A stretch of 42,314 nt of DNA from Methanobacteriota archaeon. GTDB taxonomy: Archaea; Hydrothermarchaeota; Hydrothermarchaeia; Hydrothermarchaeales; BMS3B. The DNA is taken from NCBI GenBank assembly GCA_013152685.1, contig JAADFX010000121.1, forward strand, positions 1-42,314. The letters run 5' to 3'. The notes beneath the pieces were generated by a model. It was given only the letters and a program-made list of their open reading frames with translations. It was not told the DNA's origin and ran no database searches. Positions 1,235 through 29,874 of the stretch are shown here, piece by piece; within the stretch, counting starts at the first letter, position 1, and every line of letters begins with the position of its first letter. The position numbers and the translations under genes were made by a program.

Positions 1235-1864
1235 ATGCCCCTGAACTTCTTCAAGCGGGGACTGCGTGCCCTCGGCATTGCGGAGAGCTTTTTTAAGAGC
1301 CGCGGCAGGGCTGTACTCGCGGGTGTTGTGATGCGCGGGGACCTGCAGATCGACGGCTTCGGCTTTGCCAGGATTACCCTCGGGGGGCTGGATGCCACGC
1401 AGGGCGTGCTCGAGATATACCGCCGCCTGGGGCGGAGGGATATAAATGTGGTGATGCTCAACGGCTGCATAATAAGCCTGTTCAACCTTATAGACCTGGA
1501 CGAGGTCCACGGGGCAACGGGGCTGCCTGTGCTGTGCGTCAGCTACGAGGACAGCCCCGGCCTTGAGGGCTACCTGCGGGAGCTGCCGGATGCCGGTAGG
1601 AGGCTGGAGATGTACCGCCGCCTGGGCGGAAGGGATGTGGTGGAGCTCCACACGGGGCACAGGGTGTATGTGCGCAGCCGCGGGCTGGAAGAGCACGAGG
1701 TGAGGCACCTGCTCAACCGCTTCACCCTCCAGGGCTCTGTGCCCGAGCCCCTCCGGGTGGCGCGTCTGCTCTCTCGTTCTCTGCTCAGGTGGCTTTCCGC
1801 GGAGTCACCTTCTCCGGAGGCAGTAGGCGAGGAGGGCCAGCACACCCAGGGCGGTGATGATTAG
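1235..1864 (+). CDS. DUF99 / UPF0215 family protein (archaeal, endonuclease V-like fold)
   Basis: MPLNFFKRGLRALGIAESFF...LAGVVMRGDLQIDGFGFARITLGGLDATQGV...DINVVMLNGCIISLFNLIDLDEVHGATGLPVLCV matches the DUF99 pattern as I remember it. Start moved from the track's GTG 1196 to ATG 1235 (family N-termini begin a few residues before K-R-G-hydrophobic-R). The low-complexity C-terminal tail overlaps the convergent gene by 60 nt. Confidence 0.65.
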   Translation: MPLNFFKRGLRALGIAESFFKSRGRAVLAGVVMRGDLQIDGFGFARITLGGLDATQGVLEIYRRLGRRDINVVMLNGCIISLFNLIDLDEVHGATGLPVLCVSYEDSPGLEGYLRELPDAGRRLEMYRRLGGRDVVELHTGHRVYVRSRGLEEHEVRHLLNRFTLQGSVPEPLRVARLLSRSLLRWLSAESPSPEAVGEEGQHTQGGDD

Positions 1865-3019
1865 GGTTCCCCAGGGCGGTGCTCCCCCGCTGGTGCCCCC
1901 GACTTCCCCGCCTTCTCCTTCCCCGCCCTCAGGCGAGAGGTCGAGGGTGAAGTTTGCCAGCAGGTAGGTGTCCTCCGGCTCGTCTGCCCTTCCCACTGCG
2001 ACGAAGAGGGGCGAGTCCCTGGATATGGCGCAGGAGTAGGCGATTATAAACCTCTCCCCATCTATGAGCAGGGCCTTCTGGTCGCACTTGAAGCTGGTGG
2101 GCTGCTCCCGGGAGGCGATGTACTCGGCGTTCCTGGTTATCCTCTCAGGCTGCGACCACCTCACCCCGTCGGGTGAGGAGAATAGGTAGACCTCCTCGTT
2201 TATCCCCTCATCGGAGGTGTAGGCGACCCACACCCTGCCGCCGCTGTCCCTCTTTGCGTCAAGATAGAGCACAAACTTCCCCTGGGATATCAGGCTTATC
2301 CTGGCCGCCCTGCTCCAGTTCTCCCCGTCCTCTGAGCGCATCACGAAGAGGTTGTGCTCATTCACCCTGCTCAGGTTCTCCCAGCTGCCCGTAAAGGCGC
2401 TGAAGAAGAGCAGGTACCCGCCTTCAGTCTCCACCATCCTGGGGAAGACGGCGCCCACCGGAGAGGTCACCTGCTCCAGCTCCTCCCACTGCACGCCGTC
2501 CCGCGACCTGGTATAAAATATGGCATTTGCCACCTCGCCCCGCTGGTTGAACACCATCCTGGAGAGGAAGAGCCAGTAGGTGCCCTTCGAGTCCTGGTAG
2601 ATGAAGGGGTACCAGTCGCTGGTGTGGGTCTGGATGAAGGGCACGGGCGTGCTCCAGTTGCGGCAGTCCTCCGACCTCATGAGGTAGATGTCGTAGTCCC
2701 CCTTCTCAGGGGGCTTCCTGGTGAACACCAGCCAGCAGCTCTTCTGCCGGTCCACCAGGAGGTAGGGCTGGTAGTCGGTGCCATTGAATTCCGTGAGCCT
2801 CTCGGGAGGGCTCCAGCTGAGCCCATCCGGGGAGTGCCTCAGGAAGAGGTTCCTCGCCCCGCCTCCGGTGTGCTTCGAGTAAACCAGCACATAGCTTCCG
2901 TTGAACTCTGCCAGCGCCGGGTAGCTGCTGTAGCTGTCCACCTCCCGGTGCTGCCAGGGTGCAGCCACCCCGCCTCCCACCAGCAGCAAAGCAATCAGGA
3001 GGGCGATGCGGAGCCTCAT
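1805..3019 (-). CDS. Secreted BNR/Asp-box beta-propeller (sialidase-fold) protein with C-terminal TM anchor
   Basis: Signal peptide MRLRIALLIALLLVGGGVAA. Five Asp-boxes: SPDGLSW, SEDCRNW, SRDGVQW, SEDGENW, SPDGVRW. G/E-rich linker, then PPWGTLIITALGVLALLAYCLRRR at the extreme C-terminus. Confidence 0.75.
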   Translation of the reverse strand: MRLRIALLIALLLVGGGVAAPWQHREVDSYSSYPALAEFNGSYVLVYSKHTGGGARNLFLRHSPDGLSWSPPERLTEFNGTDYQPYLLVDRQKSCWLVFTRKPPEKGDYDIYLMRSEDCRNWSTPVPFIQTHTSDWYPFIYQDSKGTYWLFLSRMVFNQRGEVANAIFYTRSRDGVQWEELEQVTSPVGAVFPRMVETEGGYLLFFSAFTGSWENLSRVNEHNLFVMRSEDGENWSRAARISLISQGKFVLYLDAKRDSGGRVWVAYTSDEGINEEVYLFSSPDGVRWSQPERITRNAEYIASREQPTSFKCDQKALLIDGERFIIAYSCAISRDSPLFVAVGRADEPEDTYLLANFTLDLSPEGGEGEGGEVGGTSGGAPPWGTLIITALGVLALLAYCLRRR

Positions 3020-3227
3020 ATAAGCCTTCCAACTTTTACCGTTGTAACACTATTTGAAAAATTTTCAACTGCCCGGCAAAGCCGGAGATGCGGCTGAAGG
3101 GCATATCCGGTGCGCTGGCAGCTGCGGCAAAATCTACAGGCTAAAATCAAAAAACAGCAGATATTCTTCTTCTATTTCTGGAAATTCTCCGTGAACACCT
3201 TTGCCGGCACGGCACCATATTTATGGA

Positions 3228-3297
3228 AAATTTTATATATCAAATTTAATTTTAATTATATTGGGAACCATGGTCCTTGTGGATTTAAAAATTTTCA
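3228..3297 (+). promoter_or_regulatory. AT-rich promoter region of the giant cytochrome gene (ttttatatat 3231-3240; atttaaaaatttt 3283-3295)
   Basis: Two TATA-like elements in an otherwise GC-rich context, 50-115 nt upstream of ATG 3348. Confidence 0.4.
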
Positions 3298-3347
3298 ACA
3301 GGTGTGGCAGTGTGAGCTCAGCTCCTGCTTTTCGGCCTTCCGGGGGT

Positions 3348-6300
3348 ATGGGGAGGGCAACTCCAGCAGGTCTGCTCATCATCCTTCTCATCGCCCTTGC
3401 GCTTTTTTCAGGTGTGGCCGCCCAGGAGGCGGTGCTCCAGCTCAACGTCTCCAGGTATGTGGTGCTGGACGAGCCCAGGACCAACAGCAACGCCGGCGCC
3501 GGCTTCAGCGTCCCATCGCGGGACTGGGGCACCGACGACTGGCGCGGCGAGGCCACCACAATAAGGGCGTATGCCATTATAACCAACGCCTCGGGCGGCG
3601 TGCCCGGCGTGACCGTCACCTTTACAATAAGGAACCCCGCCGGAGCGGCGGTGGCAACCCTCAGCGCCGTGACCAACTCCGCTGGGGTTGCGGTGGTCTC
3701 CTACAACCTGAACAACGTCTACTACTATGGAGGGTGGAGCATTGAGGCGAGCGCCACCGTCGGTGGAAGTAGCCTCAGCGCCAGCCAGAGCTTCATATAC
3801 AACTGGTGGGGGTGCGCCAACTGCCACGGCTGGGAGAACTTGGGGGAGATTGGTACCTTCTCGCAGAAGTCGCCCTACACCATGGGCTACGACTTCCACA
3901 GGAATCCAAACGCCGGTGAGCACTCCACCGCCATGAAGAACGGGCAGTGCGTGGTGTGCCACCAGAGCTACGACAACGCCTGGCACAGCGGAAGCAACCC
4001 TCCCGCGCCCGAGTATCCCGGGGGGATACACGACAACAAGCAGCGCTGCCAGGACTGCCACACCAACGCAGACACCGGCAACAAGCGCGCTGAGATTGCC
4101 GGCTGCTACGACACCGCTGGCTGCCATCCCCAGCAGAATCCGAAGCTGACCCAGGTTCCCACAACCACCGGCTACAGCGTGGGCGGGAACTACAGAAGCA
4201 TCTACAGCCTGGACACCACCACCGGTGAGCCCAGGAAGGCCCACACTCCGGCGGAGACTGTGCCATGCCTCAACTGCCACAACCCCGCTCACATGCTCTC
4301 AAAGCCCGTGGTCAACGGCACCACCAACACCTACACCGAGGATGCGCAGTGCGCCACCTGCCACGTGGGCAGGGGCAGGCACTCCACCTACAACCCCGTG
4401 TACTGCACTGCCTGCCACAGCCAAGACGCCCACAGGGTGGGGATACTCAACGGAAGCGCCTCCACCCAGCCCAGCTACGTCCAGCTGGGCTCTCCCGGAG
4501 CAGTGACAAAGAACTCCTGCCCGGACTGCCACAGCGCTGGCGCGGTGGCGGGCTTCTTCAACAACCTGAGCAGCTACGACAGCGCCGCCTACAACAGGAG
4601 CTACCAGCCCCAGGTTGACAGGTTCGGCTACTCCATAGCGCCCCACAACCAGAGCGTCCCCTGCCTGCTCTGCCACGACAACACCGACTTCCACAGCATC
4701 ACCTTCCTGAACAGCACCGCCGGCTACACCACCGACAGGAGCCGGGCAGTCGGCTGTGAGGACTGCCACGTGCCCGGGGTGAACGACACCGTCAAGAGCT
4801 TTGTGCAGGGCAGGGGCTACTCACCGCCCCAGGTGGATGAGAGGCACAACAATGCCGTGCCCTGCGACGTGTGCCACTCACCCAGCCCACACGGTGGCGC
4901 GCGCTTTCTTGAGAAGAACCTCTCCTCCTACACCACAAACCGCAGCGTCTCCGCCTTCTGCCAGGACTGCCACGTGGGTGGAGGCGCATCGGGAAGGAGC
5001 TTTGTCACGAGAAGCGGAAACTACACCCTGAACCCGCCCCAGGTGGAGGCCAGGCACAACAATGCCGTGCCCTGTGAGGTGTGCCACTCCACCAACCCCC
5101 ACGGCGGCGCCTGGTTCCTGACTCCGGGGCTCTCGGGCTACACCGCCAACCGGAGCGGCGCCGTCACCTGCAAAGACTGCCACACCAACGCCAGCGCGGG
5201 CGGGAGTGTGTTCTCCACCCGGAGCGGGAGCTACACCCTCAACCCGCCCTTCATCGGCAGCTATGCGCTGCAGCACGGCAATGAAACCTGGGAGGGACAG
5301 AACTGGGGCAGCTACTGGAATAAATCGGACGACAACTCCGCCTGTCTTTACTGCCACGACAGCGGGAGCAGCACTGAGGCGCTGCACGCGAGCAGCGCGA
5401 GGGGCAATGTGAGCAGCGTCGCCGACGGCGCCCTGGACATGACTGGCAACTGGTGCGCCAACTGCCACGTCTCTGGCGGCTTCAACCCGCAGTACAACGG
5501 CACCGCCTACTCACCCTCTCCTCCCCTCGCTGATGTGCAGAGCGCTGCCGGCAACAGCGCCGGCAGGAGCTGGTTCAACCACACCTACCTCGTAAGCTCC
5601 AACTACACCGACAGCCTGTGCTACACCTGCCACGCCAGAAGCGACGAGACGCCGGGCAACAACCTCACCCTTTTTGTCCACAACGTGGAGGAGAGCAACG
5701 GCGGCGCCGACTGCGTGAGGTGCCACGCCGTGGGCGCACCTGCGCCGAAGCATGTGGATGTGGGTGCCTTCAAGCGGAGTGTTCACGCGGGTCTGAACTC
5801 CAATGCGACCAACACCACCCGGCTCACCGATGCCGTCGCCAAGGCGTGCTGGGCGTGCCACGGCGACGGGAGTGAGCCAAAGGAGCACCCCTCCAACTAC
5901 AAGGCGCCGAAGCTCTGCGTGGACTGCCACCTGAGCGGCGCCTTTGGTGCTCCCGTTGTGGAGGAGCACTATCTCAACGGCACTGAGATTGTCGCCTCCA
6001 CGGGCGCGAGCTCCGCCCTGGGAAGCTGCCTGAACTGCCACCAGAACCAGGGGATACCCGAGCTCAGGGTGAGCGGCGTGAACGACCCCGACTACGGCAG
6101 CTTCGACGCCGACGGGGACGGCACCTCGGGCGGCAACCTCAGCGCCTACCACTACGCCTCAATTTCATCCTCCCTCATCAGCGGCGGAAGCGCAAACTGC
6201 GCCTACTGCCACCAGCAGAACAGCAGCTTCGATGCTGTTATGCAGGACGTGAGCCACAATGCGATGCTCAACCACACCGACAACTCCCCCGCGCCCACCT

Positions 6301-8408
6301 GCACAGACTGCCACGGCACCGGGAGAATGCACGACTCCACCCTGAGAAAGCCGGTGCTTACCTCCACGAACAACACCCTGTGCATGAGCTGCCACACGGC
6401 GAAGCAGCTCCACAACAGCGCTGGCAACAGGGCGAGGAACGAGACGGTTTACTGCGTCACCTGCCATACGGGGGATGTGAACACCGTCAGGGTGAGGGAC
6501 ATCCACGGAATCAAGTACCTCAACACCTCGGGGAGCTTTGAGGTGTGGGGCACCTCCTCTCCGGCGCTGTGCGTAACCTGCCACCGTAGCAATCCAGGAG
6601 GGAAGTTTGCCAACGCCTCCAGGGTTCCGCCCCTGAGGCACAGCGACGACCCCATCGCTGGCGGGAAGTGGAACAGGAGCTCCGCCACCTACTGGACCCC
6701 CGGGGATGAGCAGAGCGCCTGCAGCTTCTGCCACGGGGACAGCAGGCACAGCGCAAATGCGCTGGGCAACGCCTCTGCCGTGGAGGCGGGGCAGGTGAGG
6801 AACGCCACCGACCTCAGCACCACCTCCTGGTGTGCCGGCTGCCACTTCTCCCAGGCGGCGAACTACAACGGCACCGCCTACTCGCCCAAGGTGGTGAACC
6901 TCTCTGCCTGGGGCCTGAGCAATGCCACCGATGGCACAGCCTACAGGGACCACGTGGCGAGAGGATACATCTCCTCCAGCAGCTACAGCGATGCGGTTTG
7001 CCGCAAGTGCCACGGTGCCCTTGTCGGCTCCACGACCACCTCGGCGGAGTTTGTGCACAGCGTTGCTGAGGGCGTTGCCGGGGGCAACAACTGCATCTCC
7101 TGCCACGACATAGGCGAGCTCGCCTGGGATGTGGACTTCAACGCCACCGAGGACGCAGACGCAGCCCACAGGAATCTGAACAGCAACGCCGTTACCAGCC
7201 TGCCAGCGCAGAACAAGAAGTGCTGGGCGTGCCACGGCGACGGGAGTGAGCCGCCGCCGGGAGACCACCCCTCCGGCTACAACACCCCCAAGCTGTGTGG
7301 CGACTGCCACTTCAGCGGCGCCTTCGGAGCCCCTCTGGTTAAGGAGCACCACAGGAGCGGCGAGGATGTGAAGGTCACGGGTGCCGACTGCTGGAACTGC
7401 CACAGCCTCAAGGAGAACCAGGTTAGCAACCTGGACACCGAGAAGCCCTACCACTACACCAGTGTGGACGACAACAAGAGCTACGCCTCCCACTACGTGA
7501 AGGTCAGGAAGGACCTTAAAGCCAGGCAGGACGAGAGCTACTGCGGCTACTGCCACCAGCAGCAGAAGGGCGGCACCACCAGCAGCGCCTACAACCGGTT
7601 CTTCAGCAACACCAACAGAACCACAATGCCGGACCACAGCTCAAGGATGCGGCGCTACTACGTGCCCTGCTTCAAGTGCCACAACAGCATCAACAACCTC
7701 CACGCCCAGAGCCTGACGGTGCCGAACTTCACAAGCTTTGACTCGGAGTGCAGAACCTGCCACATCCCCGTAACCCGGGGCAACACCCATGTGAGCGGCA
7801 TGGGGTGCAGGCTGTGCCACGTGGGCACCACCAACAGGGTGCACAATGTGAGCTACCTGACGGAGAGCGGAACCTACGTGCCAGCGAAGCAGGCGAAGAG
7901 GGAGTACAGCTACGCCAAGTGCTACAACTGCCACGTTAACAGCTCCCTGGATGCGCTGATGGGCAGCTACGGCTACAGCAGCGTGGTCAAGGTGCCCTGG
8001 GCGGGCCACGGCGACGGCACGGCGGGAGGAACAACCTACTGGAGCGACAACTACACCGCCTGCGTCTTCTGCCACGCCTCGGAGCACAATGAGAACCTCC
8101 CCATAGGGTATGCGGTGCGCCTCGCCGGCATAAGGAGCGGCGACTACCCCGCCAGGATCAACGCAACCATAGCCTCGGGTAGCACCACCTGGTGCGGTTC
8201 CTGCCACATAGCGAGCGACACCGACTATAGCCTGGTGGTTAACTACTACTTTGCCAGAATCTACGGCAAGAAGCCGCCGGCTATAACGCCAGGCACAGGG
8301 AACCACTCCACGCTTGCAGCTCCCTACACCGACGACAAGTGCGCCACCTGCCACTACAGCGGTAGCGCCAGCGATGGAATGGACGCCTTCATGCACAAAA
8401 TCAGATAA
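3348..8408 (+). CDS. Giant secreted multihaem c-type cytochrome (~1,686 aa, about 40 CxxCH motifs) with an N-terminal Ig-like domain
   Basis: 40 CxxCH motifs by manual count (CANCH, CVVCH, CQDCH ... CGSCH, CATCH). Start moved from the track's TTG 3201 to ATG 3348, which gives the signal peptide MGRATPAGLLIILLIALALFSGVAAQE. An Ig-like beta segment (VTVTFTIRNPAGAAVATLSAVTNSAGVAVVSY) precedes the first haem motif. No C-terminal TM segment. Confidence 0.9.
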   Translation: MGRATPAGLLIILLIALALFSGVAAQEAVLQLNVSRYVVLDEPRTNSNAGAGFSVPSRDWGTDDWRGEATTIRAYAIITNASGGVPGVTVTFTIRNPAGAAVATLSAVTNSAGVAVVSYNLNNVYYYGGWSIEASATVGGSSLSASQSFIYNWWGCANCHGWENLGEIGTFSQKSPYTMGYDFHRNPNAGEHSTAMKNGQCVVCHQSYDNAWHSGSNPPAPEYPGGIHDNKQRCQDCHTNADTGNKRAEIAGCYDTAGCHPQQNPKLTQVPTTTGYSVGGNYRSIYSLDTTTGEPRKAHTPAETVPCLNCHNPAHMLSKPVVNGTTNTYTEDAQCATCHVGRGRHSTYNPVYCTACHSQDAHRVGILNGSASTQPSYVQLGSPGAVTKNSCPDCHSAGAVAGFFNNLSSYDSAAYNRSYQPQVDRFGYSIAPHNQSVPCLLCHDNTDFHSITFLNSTAGYTTDRSRAVGCEDCHVPGVNDTVKSFVQGRGYSPPQVDERHNNAVPCDVCHSPSPHGGARFLEKNLSSYTTNRSVSAFCQDCHVGGGASGRSFVTRSGNYTLNPPQVEARHNNAVPCEVCHSTNPHGGAWFLTPGLSGYTANRSGAVTCKDCHTNASAGGSVFSTRSGSYTLNPPFIGSYALQHGNETWEGQNWGSYWNKSDDNSACLYCHDSGSSTEALHASSARGNVSSVADGALDMTGNWCANCHVSGGFNPQYNGTAYSPSPPLADVQSAAGNSAGRSWFNHTYLVSSNYTDSLCYTCHARSDETPGNNLTLFVHNVEESNGGADCVRCHAVGAPAPKHVDVGAFKRSVHAGLNSNATNTTRLTDAVAKACWACHGDGSEPKEHPSNYKAPKLCVDCHLSGAFGAPVVEEHYLNGTEIVASTGASSALGSCLNCHQNQGIPELRVSGVNDPDYGSFDADGDGTSGGNLSAYHYASISSSLISGGSANCAYCHQQNSSFDAVMQDVSHNAMLNHTDNSPAPTCTDCHGTGRMHDSTLRKPVLTSTNNTLCMSCHTAKQLHNSAGNRARNETVYCVTCHTGDVNTVRVRDIHGIKYLNTSGSFEVWGTSSPALCVTCHRSNPGGKFANASRVPPLRHSDDPIAGGKWNRSSATYWTPGDEQSACSFCHGDSRHSANALGNASAVEAGQVRNATDLSTTSWCAGCHFSQAANYNGTAYSPKVVNLSAWGLSNATDGTAYRDHVARGYISSSSYSDAVCRKCHGALVGSTTTSAEFVHSVAEGVAGGNNCISCHDIGELAWDVDFNATEDADAAHRNLNSNAVTSLPAQNKKCWACHGDGSEPPPGDHPSGYNTPKLCGDCHFSGAFGAPLVKEHHRSGEDVKVTGADCWNCHSLKENQVSNLDTEKPYHYTSVDDNKSYASHYVKVRKDLKARQDESYCGYCHQQQKGGTTSSAYNRFFSNTNRTTMPDHSSRMRRYYVPCFKCHNSINNLHAQSLTVPNFTSFDSECRTCHIPVTRGNTHVSGMGCRLCHVGTTNRVHNVSYLTESGTYVPAKQAKREYSYAKCYNCHVNSSLDALMGSYGYSSVVKVPWAGHGDGTAGGTTYWSDNYTACVFCHASEHNENLPIGYAVRLAGIRSGDYPARINATIASGSTTWCGSCHIASDTDYSLVVNYYFARIYGKKPPAITPGTGNHSTLAAPYTDDKCATCHYSGSASDGMDAFMHKIR
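4605..5243 (+). repeat. Three tandem copies of a ~70-aa di-haem unit inside the giant cytochrome
   Basis: Units start at 4605 (diverged, 73 aa), 4824 and 5034; the last two are exactly 210 nt apart. They read PPQVDERHNNAVPCDVCHSPSPHGGARFL...FCQDCH...SGNYTLN versus PPQVEARHNNAVPCEVCHSTNPHGGAWFL...TCKDCH...SGSYTLN. They share the nucleotide run aggcacaacaatgccgtgccctg. Confidence 0.75.
5343..8405 (+). repeat. About 2.25 copies of a ~450-aa super-repeat carrying 12 CxxCH motifs each (units 5343-6719, 6720-8060, partial 8061-8405)
   Basis: Unit starts: SACLYCH / SACSFCH / TACVFCH. Matching landmarks appear in order: NWCANCH/SWCAGCH/TWCGSCH; YNGTAYSP in units 1 and 2; KACWACHGDGSEPKEHPSNYKAPKLCVDCHLSGAFGAPVVEEH versus KKCWACHGDGSEPPPGDHPSGYNTPKLCGDCHFSGAFGAPLVKEH; CLNCHQNQ...AYHYAS...CAYCHQQN versus CWNCHSLKENQ...PYHYTS...CGYCHQQQ. 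Confidence 0.65.
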
Positions 8409-8484: not shown

Positions 8485-9108
8485 ATGAGATTGACACTCT
8501 TCGCCCTGGGGCTGGTGGCACTGACCTTTCTGGTAATGCCTCAGGCAGTGGCGAAGTTCACAGGGCAGCATCAGTTCGTCAACGGCAGCAGTGTGAACTG
8601 CGGGAAGTGCCATCCCGACATAGTGTCGGAGTACAACAGCGATCCGAACCAGCCCCACAGGTCGATCAACCTGGCCTGCATAGACTGCCACATAGGCACC
8701 ACGGACCCCCTGCTGGGAAGGGTGAAGTGGAGTGAGGTGTACACCCTCACGGGAGAGGAATACTACAAGGGTATAGAGTTCCACGGGGCTGCGCTGGTGG
8801 AGTGCCTGTGGTGCCATGTAAACAATACTTATATAACCGCGGGGGCGGATGTTAATGCAGAATTTAACAACTCTCAGGTGGAGGCTCACCGCCCCCTGTT
8901 CTGGCGGGCAAAGAACGCCTCCGGCTACGATTCCCCGGACCTCCTCAGGGGGGCCAATGAGGCCTGCATAGCCTGTCACACCCACGCTGCGAATGTGACG
9001 ATAATAGAGCCGGTTCAGTACCTGAACATCACCGCCAACTACACGGAGTGCACCGCCGGGGCAAACTGCTACAGCGGATGGGACATATCCCTGGAGGTAA
9101 ACAGGTGA
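8485..9108 (+). CDS. Tetrahaem c-type cytochrome, secreted (paralog 1)
   Basis: Signal peptide MRLTLFALGLVALTFLVMPQAVA/KF. Four CxxCH motifs (CGKCH, CIDCH, CLWCH, CIACH). Several N-x-S/T sequons. Confidence 0.9.
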   Translation: MRLTLFALGLVALTFLVMPQAVAKFTGQHQFVNGSSVNCGKCHPDIVSEYNSDPNQPHRSINLACIDCHIGTTDPLLGRVKWSEVYTLTGEEYYKGIEFHGAALVECLWCHVNNTYITAGADVNAEFNNSQVEAHRPLFWRAKNASGYDSPDLLRGANEACIACHTHAANVTIIEPVQYLNITANYTECTAGANCYSGWDISLEVNR

Positions 9109-9173: not shown

Positions 9174-9851
9174 ATGAGGAAACTCTTGCTGGTGCTCGGC
9201 CTGGTTGCAGTGGTCTTCCTAGTGATGCCCAGTGCCATGGCGAAGTTCACAGGGCAGCACAAGTTCGTCAACGGCAGCAGCGTGGACTGCGAGCGGTGCC
9301 ACACCACAATAAGCACGGAGCTCCACGCCGGAAATGCCCACAACTGGAGCCAGTCCACCATCGGAACCTCCCCGTGCAGAGTGTGCCACATCCCCAACAA
9401 TGCCAGGGCCAGCGACCCGTACTACAACCCCTATAGAAGCGGCACCGGTACCTACCACGCAGCGGCGATGGTTGAGTGTCTTTACTGCCACGGCATCAGG
9501 AACGGCACAACCACCGACAACGGCGGTCTCACGATACCTGCGGCAAATGTGACGGCGGAGTTTGAGAACAGCAACATTGAGGCACATAGACCGCTGTACT
9601 ACAGGGCAAAGAACGCTTCCGGTCTGGATACCTCCGACCACCTGCAGGGAGCAAACGAGGCTTGCATAGCCTGCCACACCTACGCTGCGAATGTGACGAT
9701 AATAGAGCCCACCCAGTACCTGAACATCACAGCGACGGCGACCAACTGCACTGGCTGGTATCCGGGATTCACTGGCACAGCCGACCCCAACTGCTACAAC
9801 GACGGCTACAGCTTCAACTGGAGCATAACAATTGAAATCAACAGGCCGTAA
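9174..9851 (+). CDS. Tetrahaem c-type cytochrome, secreted (paralog 2)
   Basis: Signal peptide MRKLLLVLGLVAVVFLVMPSAMA/KF. Four CxxCH motifs (CERCH, CRVCH, CLYCH, CIACH). Collinear with 8485..9108 (AKFTGQH.FVNGSSV.C..CH ... GANEACIACHT.AANVTIIEP.QYLNITA). Confidence 0.9.
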   Translation: MRKLLLVLGLVAVVFLVMPSAMAKFTGQHKFVNGSSVDCERCHTTISTELHAGNAHNWSQSTIGTSPCRVCHIPNNARASDPYYNPYRSGTGTYHAAAMVECLYCHGIRNGTTTDNGGLTIPAANVTAEFENSNIEAHRPLYYRAKNASGLDTSDHLQGANEACIACHTYAANVTIIEPTQYLNITATATNCTGWYPGFTGTADPNCYNDGYSFNWSITIEINRP

Positions 9852-9871: not shown

Positions 9872-9893
9872 CCTTTTTATTTTTATTTTTTTA
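9872..9893 (+). terminator. Oligo-T tracts (ccctttttatttttattttttt), archaeal-type intrinsic termination signal
   Basis: Three consecutive T-runs start 21 nt after stop 9851. Archaeal RNAP is known to terminate at oligo-T. Confidence 0.45.
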
Positions 9894-9976: not shown

Positions 9977-10717
9977 ATGGACTTCATGCAGAAGATGCTG
10001 GTATTCTACTTCCTGGTTATTCTGGTTATAGTTTACTTTATCAGCGGTGTGAGGATTCCCCTTACAAGGCTTCTTCTGCGCTTTGGTCCCATGAGGGAGA
10101 GGCTGGAGAGAAGCATCAGGGAGAGGAAGGTTGCCACGCGCATGCGCCAGATGGTCTTTCCCTACAGACCAAAGACCCTCTCCGAAATCCTGCTGATCTC
10201 AATTCTGTACCTCTTCCTGGGGTATCTGATTCTCTCGAAGTTCTTCTTCTTTGCGGTGGTTGTCAGCGACAGCATGCGTCCTACCTTTGAGAAGGGCGAT
10301 CTGGTGCTAATTCAGACCCTCTCCAGGGAACCTGAGGTGGGTGACATCATCCTGTTCTCCGGATTTATAGAGCTTGACCAAGAGAGGAGGGAGTTTGTGA
10401 TTCACAGGGTGTACGCGATAACTGGGGACGGCATGGTGAAGACGCGGGGGGATGCCATGACCGCCCCCGACCCCTGGGAGGTTCCGCCCGAGAAGATTGT
10501 GGGCAAGGCGGTCACCCTCTTCGGGCATCCGGTGGTTATAAAGAAGGTCGGCGAGAGCCTCATACTGGAGCCCGGGAAGGCGATAACCAACCCCCTGGTT
10601 ATCCAGTACATAATCGGCACGGCGCGGAAGATGGGGATGGTGATATTCCTGCTGGTGATTCTGATGTATGTGCTCCTGGAGTTCAGGGAGTACAGGGTGA
10701 GGAAGGCCCTGAGGTAG
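9977..10717 (+). CDS. Signal peptidase I, archaeal/Sec11 type (S26B)
   Basis: VVVSDSMRPTFEKGDLVLI (SxSMxPT serine box), HRVYAI (His general base as in Sec11/archaeal enzymes), TRGDAMTAPDPW (GDxxxxxD box). TM segments at the N- and C-termini. Confidence 0.8.
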   Translation: MDFMQKMLVFYFLVILVIVYFISGVRIPLTRLLLRFGPMRERLERSIRERKVATRMRQMVFPYRPKTLSEILLISILYLFLGYLILSKFFFFAVVVSDSMRPTFEKGDLVLIQTLSREPEVGDIILFSGFIELDQERREFVIHRVYAITGDGMVKTRGDAMTAPDPWEVPPEKIVGKAVTLFGHPVVIKKVGESLILEPGKAITNPLVIQYIIGTARKMGMVIFLLVILMYVLLEFREYRVRKALR

Positions 10718-10786: not shown

Positions 10787-10815
10787 CGTTAGTCCGTAAA
10801 CTATTGGTGATAAGA

Positions 10816-11943
10816 ATGAACGCATACAATGTTGAGCTGAGTGAGAGGCTCGCTCTGTACTCCTCCTATCTCGTACCAGTTGGAATAATCTTCCTCTCAC
10901 TTGTATCAATTTTCAACGACACCTTTATAAACCCCGACATGCGCGCCCTGGTGCTCGATCTCATCTTCCTCCTGCTGGGTGCCCTGCTTCTCAGCGGTGC
11001 CCACCGGGTTAACGCCAAGTTCAGGCGCAACATCGTGGCGGACAGGGAGTTCAGGTACCTCCTCCTGGAGAAGTTTGAGCCCTTTCTGAAGGAGCTCAGC
11101 AGGTACCAGGTCGCCATTGATGAGCTCTCCGAGAAGGTCGATGCCCTCAGCAGGAGGGTGTCCTACATCTCGAAGGAGAAGGCGGCGCCCCCCGCCTACG
11201 CACCGCCGGTAGCCCTCGCTCCCAACATGACCTTCCTCATCAGGTCTCTAAACATGTCAATAATCACCCTGGGCGCAATAATATTCCTCTACATAAAGCT
11301 GTCCCCCAACAGCATCTACGTAATCCTCATCCTGGTGTTCCTCTGGTGGTATCTGATTACCGATGAGTACGACCTTTTCAGCGACATATCTGCGTATATC
11401 TTCATAATTTTCCCGATACTCGTTATTCCGATAACGAGTTTGATACTTCTCGCCTACTTTGACCTGCAGACGCTGCACCTCTTCCTGTTTATCGCCCTCA
11501 TCCTGTATGTGGTGGGCTACTACACAATTGCCACCTACTACGCCACCGGCAGGATACCCTTCATAGAGAAGCCCCTGGAGACCTATAGAGATGGGGGCAG
11601 CGGGGAGAAGCTGAGGAATGGTGGCACCCGCTCACCCCGCGATGCGGAGGTTGAGGCGGTAAAGGAGGTCCTGGACAGAATCCTGGGCAGCAGGAAGCCG
11701 CCCTACCACCGCAATGGTGGCACCCATGCCGGAGGAGAATATCAGCGCAACGGTGGCAGGTTTGTCGGCGATGGCGAGAGCATAACCATAACGCTGGACA
11801 GGGACACCCTTGCGGAGGTCATCGCCCTCTACCTGGCGATGCAGGGCGTGCGCAGGAGGCCGAGGCTTTTCGATTCCTCGAGGCCACCTTTTTCCCGGAG
11901 CTTCCTGTATGCGCTGTATGAAAAACTCAAAAAATTCAGATAG
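10816..11943 (+). CDS. Polytopic membrane protein (about 6 TM) with internal coiled coil and soluble C-terminal domain; hypothetical
   Basis: Two N-terminal TM helices, the coiled coil LKELSRYQVAIDELSEKVDALSRRVSYISKEK, about four further TM helices, and a C-terminal domain with a reiterated RNGG motif (RNGGT, RNGGT, RNGGR). Start taken at ATG 10816 rather than the track's TTG 10804. Confidence 0.7.
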   Translation: MNAYNVELSERLALYSSYLVPVGIIFLSLVSIFNDTFINPDMRALVLDLIFLLLGALLLSGAHRVNAKFRRNIVADREFRYLLLEKFEPFLKELSRYQVAIDELSEKVDALSRRVSYISKEKAAPPAYAPPVALAPNMTFLIRSLNMSIITLGAIIFLYIKLSPNSIYVILILVFLWWYLITDEYDLFSDISAYIFIIFPILVIPITSLILLAYFDLQTLHLFLFIALILYVVGYYTIATYYATGRIPFIEKPLETYRDGGSGEKLRNGGTRSPRDAEVEAVKEVLDRILGSRKPPYHRNGGTHAGGEYQRNGGRFVGDGESITITLDRDTLAEVIALYLAMQGVRRRPRLFDSSRPPFSRSFLYALYEKLKKFR

Positions 11944-11951
11944 GCGATTGC

Positions 11952-12632
11952 ATGAGGGTAGTTGTGGCACTCGCACTGCTAGTGTTTACTATGGTAATAT
12001 CCTCCCAGGTGTACTCCCAGGAGGAGTACACAAAGATAGAGGGCCTTGACCCGCTGGTCAGGAACTTCGGCGGCATGGGCCACAGCGGGAGCAAGTGCAT
12101 ATACTGCCACGCCTTCCTGATGCCCGACAGGGAGTACGAGGAGAAGTTCCTGCAGGCGGGCTGCAGGTGCCATCAGAGTGATGTGGCCAATGGCTATGAT
12201 GTGCGGATGAACGACATCCGCGAGAAGCACTCCTCCAACCACTGCAAGCTCTGCCATGCGGGCACCAAGAATGTGACCTACCAGCTCTACCATCAGAAGG
12301 TGCACAGGGCGGTGCCCTGCGTAAAGTGCCACAAAATTCAAAATGTGACCGACTTCAGCGTAACCAAGCCCAAGAGCATGGAGTGCAAGACCTGCCACAG
12401 GTACGACATCCACTACACCCACTCCAATGTCCTGGGAAATGTGTGCAAGATGTGCCACGGCACCGGCTTCGCATCCCGGTATACGAAGGAGGACCTGGAG
12501 AGGCTCAACCTGGAGGAAGAGGTGATCAACAGGACGATTAGAGAGAAGCAGCCGCCTAAAAAGGAGGTGAAAGAGGTTGGATTCATTACCATCTCGAAGA
12601 TCCTTGCTTTTATCATTGATATTATTTTCTAG
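11952..12632 (+). CDS. Pentahaem c-type cytochrome with signal peptide and C-terminal TM anchor
   Basis: MRVVVALALLVFTMVISSQVYS signal peptide. Five CxxCH motifs: CIYCH, CKLCH, CVKCH, CKTCH, CKMCH. C-terminal hydrophobic GFITISKILAFIIDIIF. Confidence 0.85.
   Translation: MRVVVALALLVFTMVISSQVYSQEEYTKIEGLDPLVRNFGGMGHSGSKCIYCHAFLMPDREYEEKFLQAGCRCHQSDVANGYDVRMNDIREKHSSNHCKLCHAGTKNVTYQLYHQKVHRAVPCVKCHKIQNVTDFSVTKPKSMECKTCHRYDIHYTHSNVLGNVCKMCHGTGFASRYTKEDLERLNLEEEVINRTIREKQPPKKEVKEVGFITISKILAFIIDIIF
12561..12570 (+). promoter_or_regulatory. Shine-Dalgarno (AAGGAGGTGA) inside the 3' end of the pentahaem gene, serving the overlapping lipoprotein gene
   Basis: Perfect GGAGGTGA 6 nt upstream of TTG 12577. 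Confidence 0.55.
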
Positions 12633-13026
12633 CATCATCGCCGCAGGATGCCTGAAGCTGCAGCCAAAGAAGATAAACGGCATTGAGTTCTCAGTCCAGG
12701 TTGAAAACAACCGGATAGTTCCGGATTCTGTGGAGGTCAGGCTGACTCCTGTGGACCTCACGGAGTACAGGGTGCCGGGCGTTGACTACCCACCCTTCCT
12801 GGCCTTCAGGGGGTACATTGTGCCAAAGGAGAACAGGAGCATAACCCACTCCACCTACTGGGGCCTGGTGCAGTACAGGGGCTCCGGGAGGTACAGGGTG
12901 GTGCTCATAACAGAGAACGGCTACAGCCCCAAGAAGGGGGACGAGGTGAGGTACTACATAACCCTGAGGAGCAGGGATGTGAGGTGGTCCTCCTCCTTCG
13001 TTAGCGGTTCGCGGGTGCTGGAGTGA
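12577..13026 (+). CDS. Small lipoprotein (lipobox IAAGC), beta-rich; hypothetical
   Basis: TTG start with a strong SD. (M)DSLPSRRSLLLSLILFSSIIAAGC is followed by a beta-strand-like sequence. Overlaps the pentahaem gene by 56 nt. Confidence 0.6.
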   Translation: MDSLPSRRSLLLSLILFSSIIAAGCLKLQPKKINGIEFSVQVENNRIVPDSVEVRLTPVDLTEYRVPGVDYPPFLAFRGYIVPKENRSITHSTYWGLVQYRGSGRYRVVLITENGYSPKKGDEVRYYITLRSRDVRWSSSFVSGSRVLE

Positions 13027-14733: not shown

Positions 14734-17700
14734 ATGCGGGCCTGCTCTGCGCTTTTGCTGATTCTCCTCCTGGTCGGGGTGGTTAGGGCGGATGTGATAC
14801 AGGTTACCAGCTCCTCCGGGTGCGTCGCCGCCAACGCCACCTTCTCTGACCCCGGGGAGGCTGTTTTAAACTCCGGCGCCAACGATACCATCATCCTCTG
14901 CCCGGGTGTCTATGAGCTGTCCTCCCTCACCATCGACAAGCCCCTGAAGATAGCCGGCCACCTGCGCGGCACCGCGGTGCTGAACCTCTCCACCCCCGGC
15001 TACAGCAACCGGATCAGCATTCTTGCCGACGGCGTCGAGCTCAGGAACCTGACAGTTGTCTCGGGCGGGGTGAATGTGTACGCCCTCTACATAAGGGGCA
15101 GAAACATAACCGTTGAGGATGTGGCGGTGGAGGATGGCTTCTGGTACGGCTTCTACATAGTCTCCTCCCGAAATGTGGTGCTCAAGAGGGTGAGGGTTCG
15201 CAACATGGCTGAGGCAGCCCTCGAGGTGCGCGACACCACCGGGCTGATTCTGGAGGACTCCACCCTGGTGAGGGAGAGCAGCACCTCCAGCCAGTACACC
15301 GGCAGGTACGTGGCGCTTTACAATGTCTCCGGCTCCACCATAAGGAACAACAGCATCTTCGGCGTCGTGAGGGACAGGAGTGACGGCTACGACTCGGGTT
15401 TTGCCATATACCTGAACTCCTCCTCGGGGAACACAGTGGCAGGCAACTTCGTGCGTAGGGTGTCCTACTGCATATTTTTTGACGACCCCTCCTCCGGCAA
15501 CATCTTTTACAACAACTACTTTGAGTGCGGCACACCTCCCTGCCGGGACAACCTGGGCGGTGTGAACCACTACAACACCAGCAGGAGAGCGGGCCTCAAC
15601 ATCGTGGGCGGCGGCACCCTGCAGGGCAACTACTGGGGCGGCCTGCTGCCCTACAGCGGTAGCGACCTGGACGGCGATGGCATCGGCGACACCCAGCTTC
15701 CCTACAACGCCACGAAGCCCCAGGACGGCGTCACCTACATCCTGGGGGGCGGCGACTGGGGGCCGCTGATAAAGCAGCGGGAGACCTCGCCGCCGGTGGT
15801 GGTGTCTGTGAACCTCCTCCCTGACCAGGAGGTCGCCACCTGCACCGACCTCAACCTGACTGTCACCTCCTACGCCGAGAGGATAGAGGCGTGCACCCTC
15901 GAGCTGGATGGCAGGCAGCTGCCGATGAACGTCTCCGGCGGGAGCTACATATACTACTGCAGCTACCGCCTCTGCCCTGCCGACTTCTCCGGGGGCTACC
16001 TCCCCTACAGGGTGACGGTCAGGGACTCGGCAAACAACACGGCGGATTCAGGCTACAGGGGCCTGCTTGTAAACGCCTCTCCGGCGCTCATTCTAATACA
16101 CTCCCCGCGGGATGGTGCCGCCTACAACGTGAGCACCCTGCCCCTGGAGGTGGGAGCCAGCGACGGAGTTTCCCAGTGGACTTACTCCCTGGATGGCGGG
16201 GCGAACACCAGCTTCACCCCCAACACCACCATCACCGCCGGGGAGGGCTCCCACCTGCTGGAGGTGTATGCGAGGGACTCCGCGGGTTACCTCATATACC
16301 GGAACTCCAGCTTCACCGTTGACCTGACGCCACCCTCCATAAGCCTCACCTCCCCACTGAACGGCTCCATCTACACCACCCGGAATGTCACCCTCAACGG
16401 CACCTCGACGGAGGAGGTCAGCTGGAGCTATGTGCTGAACGGGAGGTCGGGCTACCCCTCGGGATTGCCCGCCAGCCTGAGCGCCGATGAGGGGGCGAAC
16501 CGCCTGCTCGTCAGGGCTGTTGACAGGGCCGGGAATGCCGCCGTCGCAGAGGTCAGCTTTACGGTGGACACATCTCCGCCCACCGCAGCCTCCTCCGCCG
16601 GCAGCAGCGTCAGGGTGGACGTCAACTCCTCCTACAACCTCTCCTGGAGGCTTTACGACAACCTCGCCGGCGGCTACTACAGGCTGCTGCTCAACGGCAG
16701 CCCGCTGGTGGACTGGCGCCCCTGGAGCAACGCCACCGCCGTGGAGGCTGCCGTGGACACCTCACGGCTGGTGGAGTACGTCTACACCCTTGAGTTCAAC
16801 GACTCCGCAGGCTGGCTGGCGGTGAGCCGCGTTGTGGTGGATGTCATCGACCCCAGCCCCCCGGTGATAAACATCACCTCCCCTGCTGACGGTGCCCTTT
16901 ACAGCACAGCTCAACTTCTCATCAACGCCACCGCAGACAGGGCGGTTCACACCTGGCTGTGGAGCCTCAACGGGAGCCAGAATCAGAGCTTCACCCCGCC
17001 GGCCGTGGTAAACCTGACCTCCGACGGCACGTATGTGCTGGACATCTGGGCGAACTCCACCTCTGGGGCGATGGGACACGCGTCGGTGTCCTTCAGCGTG
17101 GACACCACCCCGCCGGCGGTGGTTATAGCATCTCCGGCGAATGCCACCTACGCGGACACAAGAGTCCCCCTGCGGGTGAGCGCCGGGGAGCGGGTATTAA
17201 ACTGGAGCTACCGGCTGAATGGCGGTCCGGAGGTGGGCTTCACGCCAAACACCACGATTGCCGCGGCGGCGGGACAGAACCACCTGGTGGTGTACGCGCT
17301 GGACAGCGCCGGCAACAGGGGCAGTGCGTCGGTCTACTTTACCGTCTCACCCCCCTCCCCGTCCCCCGGTGGCGGCGGAGGCGGGGGGGCGAAGCAGAGC
17401 ACCAGGAGGCTGCAGCTCGTCCTGAAGGATGCGGAGGCCGGCGGGTATACCAGGCTTGAGGTGGAGAGGTGGAACATATCGGAGGTGCTGGTGAAGCCAC
17501 GCCACACCGTATATTACGGGGAGCTGGTGCTGGAGCTTCTGGAAGCCCCTCCGGAGGCTGAGCTTGAGGGGGAGGTGTACCTGAGCTTCAGGCTTGTGAC
17601 CCGGCCGGGCATGCTGGAGGAAGCCAGGATACGCTTCGGCGTTGACGAGGTCTGGCTCAGGCGTCTGAACCTGTCCCCGGAGGACGTGGGAGCGCTTTAC

Positions 17701-18096
17701 CTTACGTCAGAGGGCTGGAAGGAGGTAGCTGTCAGGAGGGCGGGTGTGCTCAACGGGACCCTGCTGTACGAGCTTGTGCTTCACGAGCCCGGGCGGTATG
17801 CTGTGGTTGCCTCGCCGCCCATTGCTGGAGCCGACCGCCTCGTGGATGAGGAGAAGCCCGAGTGGAGGTTCATCCCTCCCGGCACCGGAGCCGCGGGCGG
17901 TGGAGCGGGGGAGGTGAAGGAGGAGCCCGGGGTTTCAGCTCCTTCGCCCCCATCACCCGCGCCGGAGAACGGCAGGTCTGCGGGGTCCCCGCAGGAGGAG
18001 AGGGGTGGAATATGCGGTCCCACCCTTCTGCTTCTAGTCTCCCTTGTCCCGCTGCTCGGCGCCAGGCTTCTGCGTCAGCCTCAGCCTGCCGAGTAG
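14734..18096 (+). CDS. Large surface protein: right-handed beta-helix (NosD/PbH1-like), multiple Ig-like repeats, PGF-pre-PGF-like domain, C-terminal TM anchor
   Basis: Signal peptide MRACSALLLILLLVGVVRA. Beta-helix turns (NNSIFG, GNTVAGNFV, NIFYNNYF) and DLDGDGIGDTQLPY. Repeated ~95-aa modules (...SPRDGAAYNVSTLPLEV...WTYSLDGGANTSFTPNTTI...; ...SPADGALYSTAQLLINA...WLWSLNGSQNQSFTPPAVV...; ...SPANATYADTRVPLRV...WSYRLNGGPEVGFTPNTTI...). Gly7 linker. C-terminal GGICGPTLLLLVSLVPLLGARLLRQ. Confidence 0.85.
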   Translation: MRACSALLLILLLVGVVRADVIQVTSSSGCVAANATFSDPGEAVLNSGANDTIILCPGVYELSSLTIDKPLKIAGHLRGTAVLNLSTPGYSNRISILADGVELRNLTVVSGGVNVYALYIRGRNITVEDVAVEDGFWYGFYIVSSRNVVLKRVRVRNMAEAALEVRDTTGLILEDSTLVRESSTSSQYTGRYVALYNVSGSTIRNNSIFGVVRDRSDGYDSGFAIYLNSSSGNTVAGNFVRRVSYCIFFDDPSSGNIFYNNYFECGTPPCRDNLGGVNHYNTSRRAGLNIVGGGTLQGNYWGGLLPYSGSDLDGDGIGDTQLPYNATKPQDGVTYILGGGDWGPLIKQRETSPPVVVSVNLLPDQEVATCTDLNLTVTSYAERIEACTLELDGRQLPMNVSGGSYIYYCSYRLCPADFSGGYLPYRVTVRDSANNTADSGYRGLLVNASPALILIHSPRDGAAYNVSTLPLEVGASDGVSQWTYSLDGGANTSFTPNTTITAGEGSHLLEVYARDSAGYLIYRNSSFTVDLTPPSISLTSPLNGSIYTTRNVTLNGTSTEEVSWSYVLNGRSGYPSGLPASLSADEGANRLLVRAVDRAGNAAVAEVSFTVDTSPPTAASSAGSSVRVDVNSSYNLSWRLYDNLAGGYYRLLLNGSPLVDWRPWSNATAVEAAVDTSRLVEYVYTLEFNDSAGWLAVSRVVVDVIDPSPPVINITSPADGALYSTAQLLINATADRAVHTWLWSLNGSQNQSFTPPAVVNLTSDGTYVLDIWANSTSGAMGHASVSFSVDTTPPAVVIASPANATYADTRVPLRVSAGERVLNWSYRLNGGPEVGFTPNTTIAAAAGQNHLVVYALDSAGNRGSASVYFTVSPPSPSPGGGGGGGAKQSTRRLQLVLKDAEAGGYTRLEVERWNISEVLVKPRHTVYYGELVLELLEAPPEAELEGEVYLSFRLVTRPGMLEEARIRFGVDEVWLRRLNLSPEDVGALYLTSEGWKEVAVRRAGVLNGTLLYELVLHEPGRYAVVASPPIAGADRLVDEEKPEWRFIPPGTGAAGGGAGEVKEEPGVSAPSPPSPAPENGRSAGSPQEERGGICGPTLLLLVSLVPLLGARLLRQPQPAE

Positions 18097-18666
18097 CGCT
18101 CTGAGGAAGCTCCTGCTGCCCCTCCCGTTGGTGGCATACACCTTCTCAGCGCCCGAGCTGAATACGGTGCCCAGGCAGCTCTCACAGAAGAGCAGCGACT
18201 TTCTGTCTATCTCATCCACGGTGCTGGAGAACTTCATGTTGCACTCGCTGTTCTCGCAGTGCACCATGCCCAGGGTGTGCCCCAGCTCATGCAGCGCCTC
18301 CTTGAGCAGCCTCTCCAGGAACAGCTCCCTCTCCCATTCCCGGCCGTGCCGGGCATCCCGGAGTCGGAAGGGGGATATAACCGCCCACCTGCCCCCCAGC
18401 GCCGCAAGGCCGAAGATGTAGTCAACCCCCGCGACGGTGATGTCCCTGTCTATCACGGCGAGCACCCTCTCCGCCGCGGTGGGGCGTGAGGCCAGGGTGT
18501 CCAGGAGGTGGTCTGCCAGCACCTGCCCCCTGGAGTTGAAGCGGAGGGGCACCTCCACCGGAGGCGAAACCACAACCTCACCGAAGAACTCGGCCAGCCT
18601 GTCCCTGAGGTACCGCAGCCACTCGTCCTCAACGCAGCCAATGGGTAGTATCTCGAGCACCGTCAC
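18034..18666 (-). CDS. amzA: Archaemetzincin (peptidase M54)
   Basis: HELGHTLGMVHCENSECNMKFSSTVDEIDRKSLLFCESC matches the archaemetzincin signature HExxHxxGxxxCxxxxCxM...CxxC. Typical N-terminus MTVLEILPIG. The 3' tail overlaps the convergent 14734..18096 gene by 63 nt. Confidence 0.85.
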   Translation of the reverse strand: MTVLEILPIGCVEDEWLRYLRDRLAEFFGEVVVSPPVEVPLRFNSRGQVLADHLLDTLASRPTAAERVLAVIDRDITVAGVDYIFGLAALGGRWAVISPFRLRDARHGREWERELFLERLLKEALHELGHTLGMVHCENSECNMKFSSTVDEIDRKSLLFCESCLGTVFSSGAEKVYATNGRGSRSFLRALLGRLRLTQKPGAEQRDKGD

Positions 18667-18689
18667 AGATATACTCTATCTGCTTCACG

Positions 18690-18712
18690 ATTTAAAAATT
18701 TTTTTATATAAG
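18690..18712. promoter_or_regulatory. Shared AT-rich bidirectional promoter (tttaaaaatttttttatata) between amzA and the beta-helix/CWB2 gene
   Basis: Lies 24-44 nt from ATG 18666(-) and 20-40 nt from ATG 18731(+). Both transcripts would be (nearly) leaderless. Confidence 0.4.
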
Positions 18713-18730
18713 CTTGGAAAATATTTATCC

Positions 18731-24417: not shown

Positions 24418-24443
24418 TCTTCCACCGGACCTCGGAGACCAGC

Positions 24444-25429: not shown

Positions 25430-25430
25430 G

Positions 25431-27440: not shown

Positions 27441-27448
27441 GGCGGGGG

Positions 27449-29842: not shown

Positions 29843-29874
29843 GGAGATAATTTGTTGCGGGTGCAATATGAAGC

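Follow-up and report, generated by a model that had tools for sequence, protein, structure and literature searches.

Giant multihaem c-type cytochromes (MHCs) of the Ferp_0672 type are known from the Archaeoglobi, and Ferp_0672 itself is cited in a 2026 paper (PMC13104607, after Smith et al. 2015) among the MHCs tied by omics to Fe(III) reduction in Ferroglobus placidus. MHCs with more than 50 and up to 113 haems have been described in Methanoperedenaceae (Leu et al. 2020, PMC7327174), and metagenome-assembled genomes (MAGs) of Hydrothermarchaeota encode up to 67 motifs per MHC (Kato et al. 2019, PMC6759336). In the gene clusters of the bacterial OmcE nanowire, the subunit is accompanied by multihaem cytochromes and beta-propeller proteins, and the secretion and assembly of bacterial cytochrome nanowires were stated to be unexplained (bioRxiv 10.1101/2025.10.22.684050); for Methanoperedens, a 2026 review stated nanowire export, anchoring and electron supply to be open. 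In this study, we analysed a 42,314-nucleotide stretch of archaeal DNA (contig JAADFX010000121.1, hereafter the window), which encodes a giant MHC next to two homologues of AvECN, the Archaeoglobus veneficus nanowire (PDB 8E5G). By itself, this MHC is one more member of the known Ferp_0672-type family of archaeal giant cytochromes. The main addition is the conserved cluster around the giant MHC, made up of a pair of AvECN-type subunits, a signal peptidase, a membrane protein, a membrane cytochrome and an opposite-strand propeller; it provides a short candidate list for nanowire export, anchoring and electron supply.

The MHC gene encodes 1,686 amino acids (aa) followed by a stop codon, and its features were as follows.

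3348 to 8408, plus strand: giant multihaem c-type cytochrome gene (open reading frame translation, CxxCH regular expression, full-length orthologues 77–78% identical)
3348 to 3422, plus strand: Sec-type signal peptide, aa 1–25, with predicted cleavage after VAA (hydropathy and sequence)
3432 to 3806, plus strand: MG2-like/Ig-like beta-sandwich domain, aa 29–153 (Pfam MG2, AlphaFold2, Foldseek)
3807 to 4607, plus strand: family-defining 8-haem core, aa 154–420, with seven CxxCH motifs and a non-canonical site (alignment A1)
4104 to 4127, plus strand: CX5CH site CYDTAGCH, aa 253–260, the probable 41st haem attachment site (invariant in alignment A1)
4608 to 5255, plus strand: three tandem 2-haem repeats of about 72 aa each, aa 421–636 (self-alignment)
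5268 to 6632, plus strand: 12-haem module A, aa 641–1095 (alignment to A'; Pfam)
6633 to 7997, plus strand: 12-haem module A', aa 1096–1550, tandem duplicate of A (alignment to A)
7998 to 8405, plus strand: C-terminal 3-haem partial module, aa 1551–1686 (aligns to the first three haems of A and A')

A regular-expression search found exactly 40 CxxCH motifs in the MHC, 18–73 residues apart, and shuffling its residues gave 0.2 on average and never more than 3; the first-pass annotation had counted the same number by hand. The protein has 82 cysteines, 80 of which lie in these motifs, and the other two form C253-X5-C259-H260 (CYDTAGCH). All three residues were invariant in a 24-sequence family alignment (A1), and other family members carry CX3CH to CX6CH sites flanked by the same residues, as in GCYDTCH (CX3CH) of Ferp_0672. 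We found no use of the term CX5CH in the searchable open literature, and we rejected it as a new haem motif because this range of spacings with the same flanking residues makes it a loop-length variant of a known non-canonical site. The MHC therefore probably has 41 haem sites, that is, 40 CxxCH plus CX5CH, at a density of about 41 residues per haem. Among its 87 histidines, 46 lie outside the motifs, and 45 of these are conserved in orthologues 77–78% identical, which is sufficient for bis-His ligation of every haem.

The gene lies in a single open frame spanning 3201–8408 on the plus strand. Orthologues P0002 (78% identity) and P0003 (77%), which come from independent assemblies, were collinear with the MHC over its full length and retained all 40 CxxCH motifs and the CX5CH site. 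A more distant orthologue, P0004 (54% identity in global alignment, 48% by BLASTP), lacked one 2-haem repeat only and kept 41 of the 46 non-motif histidines. No long near-identical DNA repeats were found within the gene, the best being 86 nt at 84% identity in the tandem 2-haem repeats, and its GC content at third codon positions (GC3) was 0.86, within the 0.73–0.87 of the rest of the window. These results indicate that a frameshift or an assembly chimera, which the first-pass annotation had raised as grounds for refutation, is unlikely, as is a recent foreign insertion. The start is ambiguous between ATG 3348, used here, and ATG 3270, which gives 1,712 aa in a public gene call, yet the mature MHC is identical either way. 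Two TATA-like elements lie at about 3231–3262, upstream of the start. The residues MVLVDL at ATG 3270 are similar to the MLIDL that opens orthologue P0002, and GGGGGT stands directly 5' of ATG 3348 with zero spacing.

To describe the architecture of the MHC, we combined self-alignment, profile searches and structure prediction. AlphaFold2 modelled aa 29–153 as a beta-sandwich with a block-mean pLDDT of about 67–93. Pfam MG2 matched this region at E=2e-6, below the gathering score, and the top Foldseek matches were macroglobulin (MG) domains of C5, alpha2-macroglobulin and C3 (E about 5e-5), in agreement with the N-terminal Ig-like domain of the first reading. The model of aa 1–660 (pLDDT 68) was informative for this MG-like domain only; Foldseek gave no matches for its haem region, and no beta-barrel domain besides the MG domain was detected by Pfam or in this model. 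The Cys and His columns of the 8-haem core that follows were invariant in A1. Between adjacent 2-haem repeats, identity was 44% and 63% and the two motifs stayed in register, and modules A and A' shared 39.6% identity with CxxCH in register at 12 of 12 positions. A conserved motif, DGMDxFxHxI, closes the protein and is common to P0002, P0003, P0004 and P0006. The haems thus add up as 8+6+12+12+3 = 41. Judged from these alignments, the haem number is the product of tandem module duplication, which explains the wide range of haem counts (19 to 47 motifs) among relatives, and the duplicated 12-haem module shows plainly how haem number scales.

The N-terminus, MGRATPAGLLIILLIALALFSGVAA followed by QEAV, is a typical Sec signal, with cleavage predicted between VAA and Q. 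The only hydrophobic stretch of the MHC is this signal (AGLLIILLIALALFSGVAA, then QEAV), where the Kyte-Doolittle 19-residue maximum reached 2.67; beyond residue 40 the maximum was 1.49, and no transmembrane helix was found. The MHC also had no lipobox Cys after the signal peptide and no C-terminal anchor or sorting signal (PGF-CTERM or other), so that the exported, unanchored protein described in the first-pass annotation was borne out. We counted 46 N-X-S/T sequons against 22 ± 4 in shuffles, an enrichment that fits a probably N-glycosylated archaeal surface protein.

Profile searches placed the haem region among electron-transfer cytochromes. The Pfam family of MtrC/MtrF domain II/IV (PF22113) matched the MHC with 155 bits in 7 stretches and module A alone with 60.5 bits against a cutoff of 30, and the cytochrome c7 and c3 families matched as well. 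A profile of the MHC family matched OmcA (4LMH, 1.6e-11), the periplasmic decahaem MtrA (6R2Q_A, 5e-11) and OmhA (6QVM, 1.6e-9) in the PDB, as well as MtrF and MtrC, with 3PMQ and 6QYC among the surface-cytochrome matches, whereas a single-sequence PDB search with the giant MHC gave no match. Matches of the profile to NrfA were weak and reflected local haem packing only. The whole-protein NCBIfam models for DmsE and for OmcA/MtrC left the MHC far below their cutoffs (TIGR03508, 82.7 bits against 192; TIGR03507 was not listed for the MHC). By these comparisons, the MHC has the pentahaem electron-transfer module but is no member of the decahaem OmcA/MtrC/MtrF families. We found no CxxCK and no long-spacer motif (CX15CH type) in it, and no enzyme family above threshold in NCBIfam (octahaem_Shew, 15 bits against a cutoff of 375). 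The absence of CxxCK and of an above-threshold enzyme family points to electron transfer rather than catalysis.

Shewanella MtrC, OmcA and MtrF and Carboxydothermus OmhA share the pentahaem domain II/IV fold family with the window MHC, and a cell-surface role is presumed for all of them. They are lipoproteins or S-layer associated, with 10–11 haems and beta-barrel domains I/III, whereas the window MHC has about 41 haem sites, no lipobox and no detected beta-barrel domains I/III. An archaeon has no outer membrane to house a porin partner of the MtrAB type.

The closest likeness was to Ferp_0672 and other giant MHCs of Archaeoglobi such as that of JdFR-37, whose N-terminal MG-like domain and haem core align with those of the window MHC at about 52% identity over 370 aa. 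The non-canonical haem site is shared too, and so is the locus setting, with an adjacent beta-propeller gene and genes for small ECN-like cytochromes. Searched against 1.84 billion representative proteins, the N-terminal module (aa 26–400) retrieved only 46 clusters at E<=1e-30, and Ferp_0672 matched it at E=1e-111 over aa 2–371 of the module; on these matches, the MG-plus-core module defines a small family that includes Ferp_0672. The two proteins differ elsewhere. Ferp_0672 has 29 CxxCH in 1,639 aa and another C-terminal part, its best BLASTP local alignment covers 31% of the window MHC, its non-canonical site is CX3CH rather than CX5CH, and its host belongs to the Archaeoglobi, whereas that of the window MHC appears to be Hydrothermarchaeota-like. 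The haem modules (about 30–35% identity) and strong sequon enrichment are also found in giant MHCs of Methanoperedenaceae and ANME-2, whose genes likewise adjoin those for ECN-like proteins, signal peptidase and membrane proteins. Many of these exceed the window MHC in size, with up to 113 haems (PMC7327174), and some (P0017, P0031, P0042 and P0043) carry the S-layer domain PF07752 and a C-terminal transmembrane anchor, whereas the window MHC has no such anchor and no Pfam match to PF07752.

The best matches in species-representative genomes were Archaeoglobus sp. JdFR-37 (50%), an unclassified vent archaeon, many Methanoperedens MAGs, and members of Methanocellales and ANME-2. All homologues were archaeal, and the window also encodes aSUI1, Endo_dU, ScpB and an archaeal-type signal peptidase; the homologues together with aSUI1, Endo_dU and the signal peptidase show the gene to be archaeal, as first proposed. 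The phosphoglucosamine-mutase-like protein at 37300–38667, a housekeeping marker, had relatives up to 91% identical, and those above about 57% with a name were labelled Candidatus Hydrothermarchaeota, Hydrothermarchaeaceae or Hydrothermarchaeales (57–62%) or, more broadly, Euryarchaeota or Methanobacteriota archaeon. One ECN-like homologue came from Candidatus Pyrohabitans, a genus of Hydrothermarchaeota. On this one marker and this homologue, the host is most likely a high-GC, Hydrothermarchaeota-like archaeon rather than an Archaeoglobus or an ANME. The link to Archaeoglobales, ANME and Methanoperedens drawn in the first-pass annotation held for the homologues (Ferp_0672, JdFR-37 and Methanoperedens MAGs) but missed the probable Hydrothermarchaeota-like host lineage. 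The MHC extends the Ferp_0672-type family to this high-GC lineage, a phylum from which MHCs of as many as 67 motifs were known before. The same annotation had placed 40 motifs at the upper end for archaea, which does not agree with the 113 haems and 67 motifs published (PMC7327174, PMC6759336) or with the 43–47 CxxCH in relatives P0010, P0011, P0012, P0039, P0230, P0244 and P0260 and in a 47-haem open reading frame (ORF) of 2,707 aa in Methanoperedens locus L019 (8834–16957); another Methanoperedens locus, L030 (7733–15721), has a 40-haem ORF of 2,662 aa. A count of 40 is ordinary for the wider group.

The genes that surround the MHC in the window were as follows.

1805 to 3019, minus strand: BNR/GH43-like beta-propeller with signal peptide, Gly/Glu linker and C-terminal transmembrane anchor (Pfam BNR_2 and translation)
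8485 to 9108, plus strand: AvECN-family tetrahaem cytochrome A, 207 aa (PDB 8E5G_A, E=2.5e-10)
9174 to 9851, plus strand: AvECN-family tetrahaem cytochrome B, 225 aa (PDB 8E5G_A, E=1.5e-7)
9977 to 10717, plus strand: archaeal-type signal peptidase I, 246 aa, with transmembrane segments (TIGR02228, 64.3 bits against a cutoff of 51.85; Pfam Peptidase_S26)
10804 to 11943, plus strand: polytopic membrane protein, 379 aa, with about seven hydrophobic segments (hydropathy)
11952 to 12632, plus strand: pentahaem cytochrome, 226 aa, with signal peptide and C-terminal hydrophobic tail anchor (five CxxCH; weak Pfam c7/c3)

Cytochromes A and B are paralogues, 56% identical, and full-length homologues of AvECN. 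A profile of their family matched nearly the full chain of 8E5G_A at E=1.5e-33. In this family, the four CxxCH, which align with those of AvECN, and four distal His were invariant: an invariant F-x-x-Q-H follows the signal peptide at once, and the family conserves three more distal His. The giant MHC, in contrast, is no ECN subunit; it had another architecture and no single-sequence PDB match. Strong Shine-Dalgarno sequences precede both genes, and a T-rich terminator-like run lies after cytochrome B at 9874–9892 and nowhere else between the cluster genes. The tandem paralogues might mean a heteropolymer or a major and a minor subunit. No Pfam or NCBIfam match was found for the 379-aa membrane protein, and the pentahaem cytochrome is kept at 79% identity in the locus of a 77% orthologue of the MHC (L039).

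Gene order was then compared with the loci of MHC homologues, among which L039 carries the 77% orthologue, L044 an orthologue of about 50% identity, L042 the F. placidus gene, and L019, L021, L030 and L037 are from Methanoperedens. Three diverged lineages (the window, L039 and L044) have the order MHC, two ECN genes, signal peptidase and membrane protein; in L044, an HNH endonuclease gene with an RRXRR domain (5173–6531, 452 aa) is inserted between the MHC and ECN-like genes. In the window, an ECN-like gene follows directly downstream of the MHC, and each of the four orthologue loci examined (L002, L039, L043 and L044) showed the same. In F. placidus, the surroundings of Ferp_0670 and Ferp_0672 include the propeller and several ECN-like cytochromes of small size. 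In Methanoperedens, ECN-like genes with signal-peptidase and/or 379-aa-family genes occur within a few kb of a giant MHC (L021, L030 and L037), and an ECN-like gene lies about 2 kb downstream of the 47-haem ORF. Counterparts of the propeller lay directly upstream of the MHC homologue in L001 and L039–L043, and in L002 and L033 they were no more than a few kb away. Signal peptidase I lay near ECN-like genes in L021, L037, L039, L040 and L044, and homologues of the 379-aa membrane protein lay beside ECN-like genes in L021 and L030, and occurred also in L001, L034, L039 and L044. The signal peptidase I, which has extra transmembrane segments, and the 379-aa protein thus recur in Hydrothermarchaeota-like contigs as well as in Methanoperedens, and they may be processing or assembly factors for a filament. 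SipW is a dedicated peptidase for TasA fibres, an arrangement that the signal peptidase I near the ECN genes recalls. The cluster association of AvECN-type genes may already be described in the AvECN literature.

On this evidence, we think it rather probable that the MHC is an envelope-spanning, non-catalytic conduit for extracellular electron transfer that works with, or feeds, a polymeric cytochrome filament. The protein would be Sec-exported, probably N-glycosylated, and loaded with about 41 haems, all bis-His ligated, and its place would be the pseudoperiplasm or S-layer of the archaeal cell envelope, without an anchor of its own. Electrons would enter it from membrane-anchored cytochromes, for example the pentahaem protein, would pass along a presumably continuous haem chain across the pseudoperiplasm and S-layer, and would be handed to minerals, to partner cells or to filaments of the adjacent AvECN-type tetrahaem subunits. 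The membrane-anchored beta-propeller is a candidate tether, and either the propeller or the MG-like domain could hold the MHC in place. In OmcS, GSU1996 and MtrC, haems are spaced at about 0.7–1 nm per haem; by this estimate, 41 haems could span roughly 25–40 nm, enough to cross an archaeal envelope. The first-pass annotation had suggested a wire reaching beyond the S-layer, for which the two neighbouring AvECN homologues are, more plausibly than the giant MHC, the long-range candidates. If these archaea do carry out extracellular electron transfer in hot crustal or vent habitats rich in iron and sulfur, the cluster bears on subsurface iron cycling.

Several results weigh against this conduit. 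The adjacency of MHC and ECN genes does not prove physical or functional coupling, and polymerisation of the window ECN homologues is itself presumed. Locus L043 keeps the propeller, the MHC and one ECN gene, but its cluster is partly rearranged, without adjoining signal peptidase and membrane-protein genes. The spacers between the cluster genes in the window are AT-rich and TATA-like, so the genes may be transcribed separately. No cytochrome c maturation (Ccm) genes and no quinol-oxidising module were found in the window. The AlphaFold2 model of aa 641–1686, with a mean pLDDT of 43.8 and a pTM of 0.30, was too poor for haem-chain geometry.

A more specific proposal is that the MHC serves as the cell-proximal base or charging adaptor of an AvECN-type nanowire and is part of a conserved assembly locus. 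Its assembly partners would be the propeller, a dedicated signal peptidase I, the 379-aa membrane protein and the tail-anchored pentahaem cytochrome. With the MHC, they would export and process the filament, root it and give it an electrical connection across the S-layer. We put this forward tentatively and consider it somewhat unlikely.

The MHC could also be a free-standing terminal reductase of Fe(III) or Mn(IV) minerals, released or loosely attached at the cell surface and acting directly in the manner of OmcA, MtrC and OmhA, with no functional link to the ECN-type neighbours. The homology of the family profile to OmcA, MtrF, MtrC and the S-layer-associated OmhA would suit such a role, as would the lack of an anchor, the implication of the Ferp_0672 family in Fe(III) reduction (PMC13104607) and the orthologue locus L043, where the signal peptidase and membrane-protein genes do not adjoin. 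An ECN-like gene directly downstream in the window and in L002, L039, L043 and L044 argues against it, and about 41 haems far exceed the need, since known terminal reductases have 10–11. We therefore regard a free-standing reductase as unlikely.

Compared with the outward conduit preferred here, electron flow in the opposite direction is less probable still, and we consider it distinctly improbable. The donor would then be Fe(II), a reduced mineral, a cathode or a syntrophic partner, and the electrons would enter the metabolism of a Hydrothermarchaeota cell, for example CO2, nitrate or sulfate reduction. Chains of bis-His MHCs are reversible. The AvECN homologue MmcX was proposed for electron uptake in a Methanocellales acetogen (PMC11176372), and Hydrothermarchaeota are predicted nitrate and sulfate reducers in iron- and sulfur-rich vents (PMC6759336). 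The window holds no indication of direction, however, and physiological data exist for a single homologue, Ferp_0672, which PMC13104607 ties to Fe(III) reduction.

A pseudoperiplasmic electron store (capacitor) or redox buffer, in place of a directional wire, would be in keeping with the very high haem density and with a soluble, unanchored protein, but the conserved cluster with filament-type cytochromes and surface proteins does not suit it, and the strong sequon enrichment and adhesin-like MG domain suggest surface exposure; we hold this to be very doubtful. An artefactual MHC ORF, whether chimeric through misassembly, part of a frameshifted pseudogene or a spurious frame in high-GC DNA, is effectively excluded, because no supporting evidence was found beyond the window being probably a metagenomic contig, and the intact frame, the independently assembled collinear orthologues with all 41 sites, the GC3 equal to that of neighbouring genes and the absence of long near-identical repeats all speak against it.

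Further observations concerned the composition and borders of the cluster. The GC content of the ECN sub-cluster was 0.53–0.57 against 0.63, and horizontal acquisition was rejected as the explanation: GC3 was uniformly 0.73–0.87, so the lower GC reflects amino-acid composition. A terminator scan of the window gave a count at chance level, and sigma-70 promoter and terminator scans are not applicable to archaea; we read the intergenic spacers directly in their place. Scans of the window for tRNAs and with Rfam gave no matches. A minus-strand ORF at 11979–12761 is slightly longer than the pentahaem gene and would mislead a longest-ORF gene call; it was rejected in favour of the plus-strand gene at 11952–12632, which is conserved in L039. 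After the pentahaem gene, a 149-aa ORF (12577–13026) carries a lipobox-like LSLILFSSIIAAGC.

Downstream, at 14734–18096, 18437–20590 (plus strand) and 25167–29881, successive genes of the window encode large proteins that are secreted or lie at the surface. Among them are NosD/beta-helix proteins with Ig-like domains; one protein has a domain for cell-wall binding (CWB2), and NEW3 or CarboxypepD_reg domains occur in others. The two NosD genes accompany the MHC locus in L039 and L043 as well, so that the region resembles a cell-surface island. On the minus strand at 20562–24468, two genes of the tubulin/FtsZ superfamily (one strong match at E=1e-22, one weak match below the Pfam cutoff) flank a 454-aa protein without a family, possibly a CetZ-like or other non-canonical tubulin cassette.

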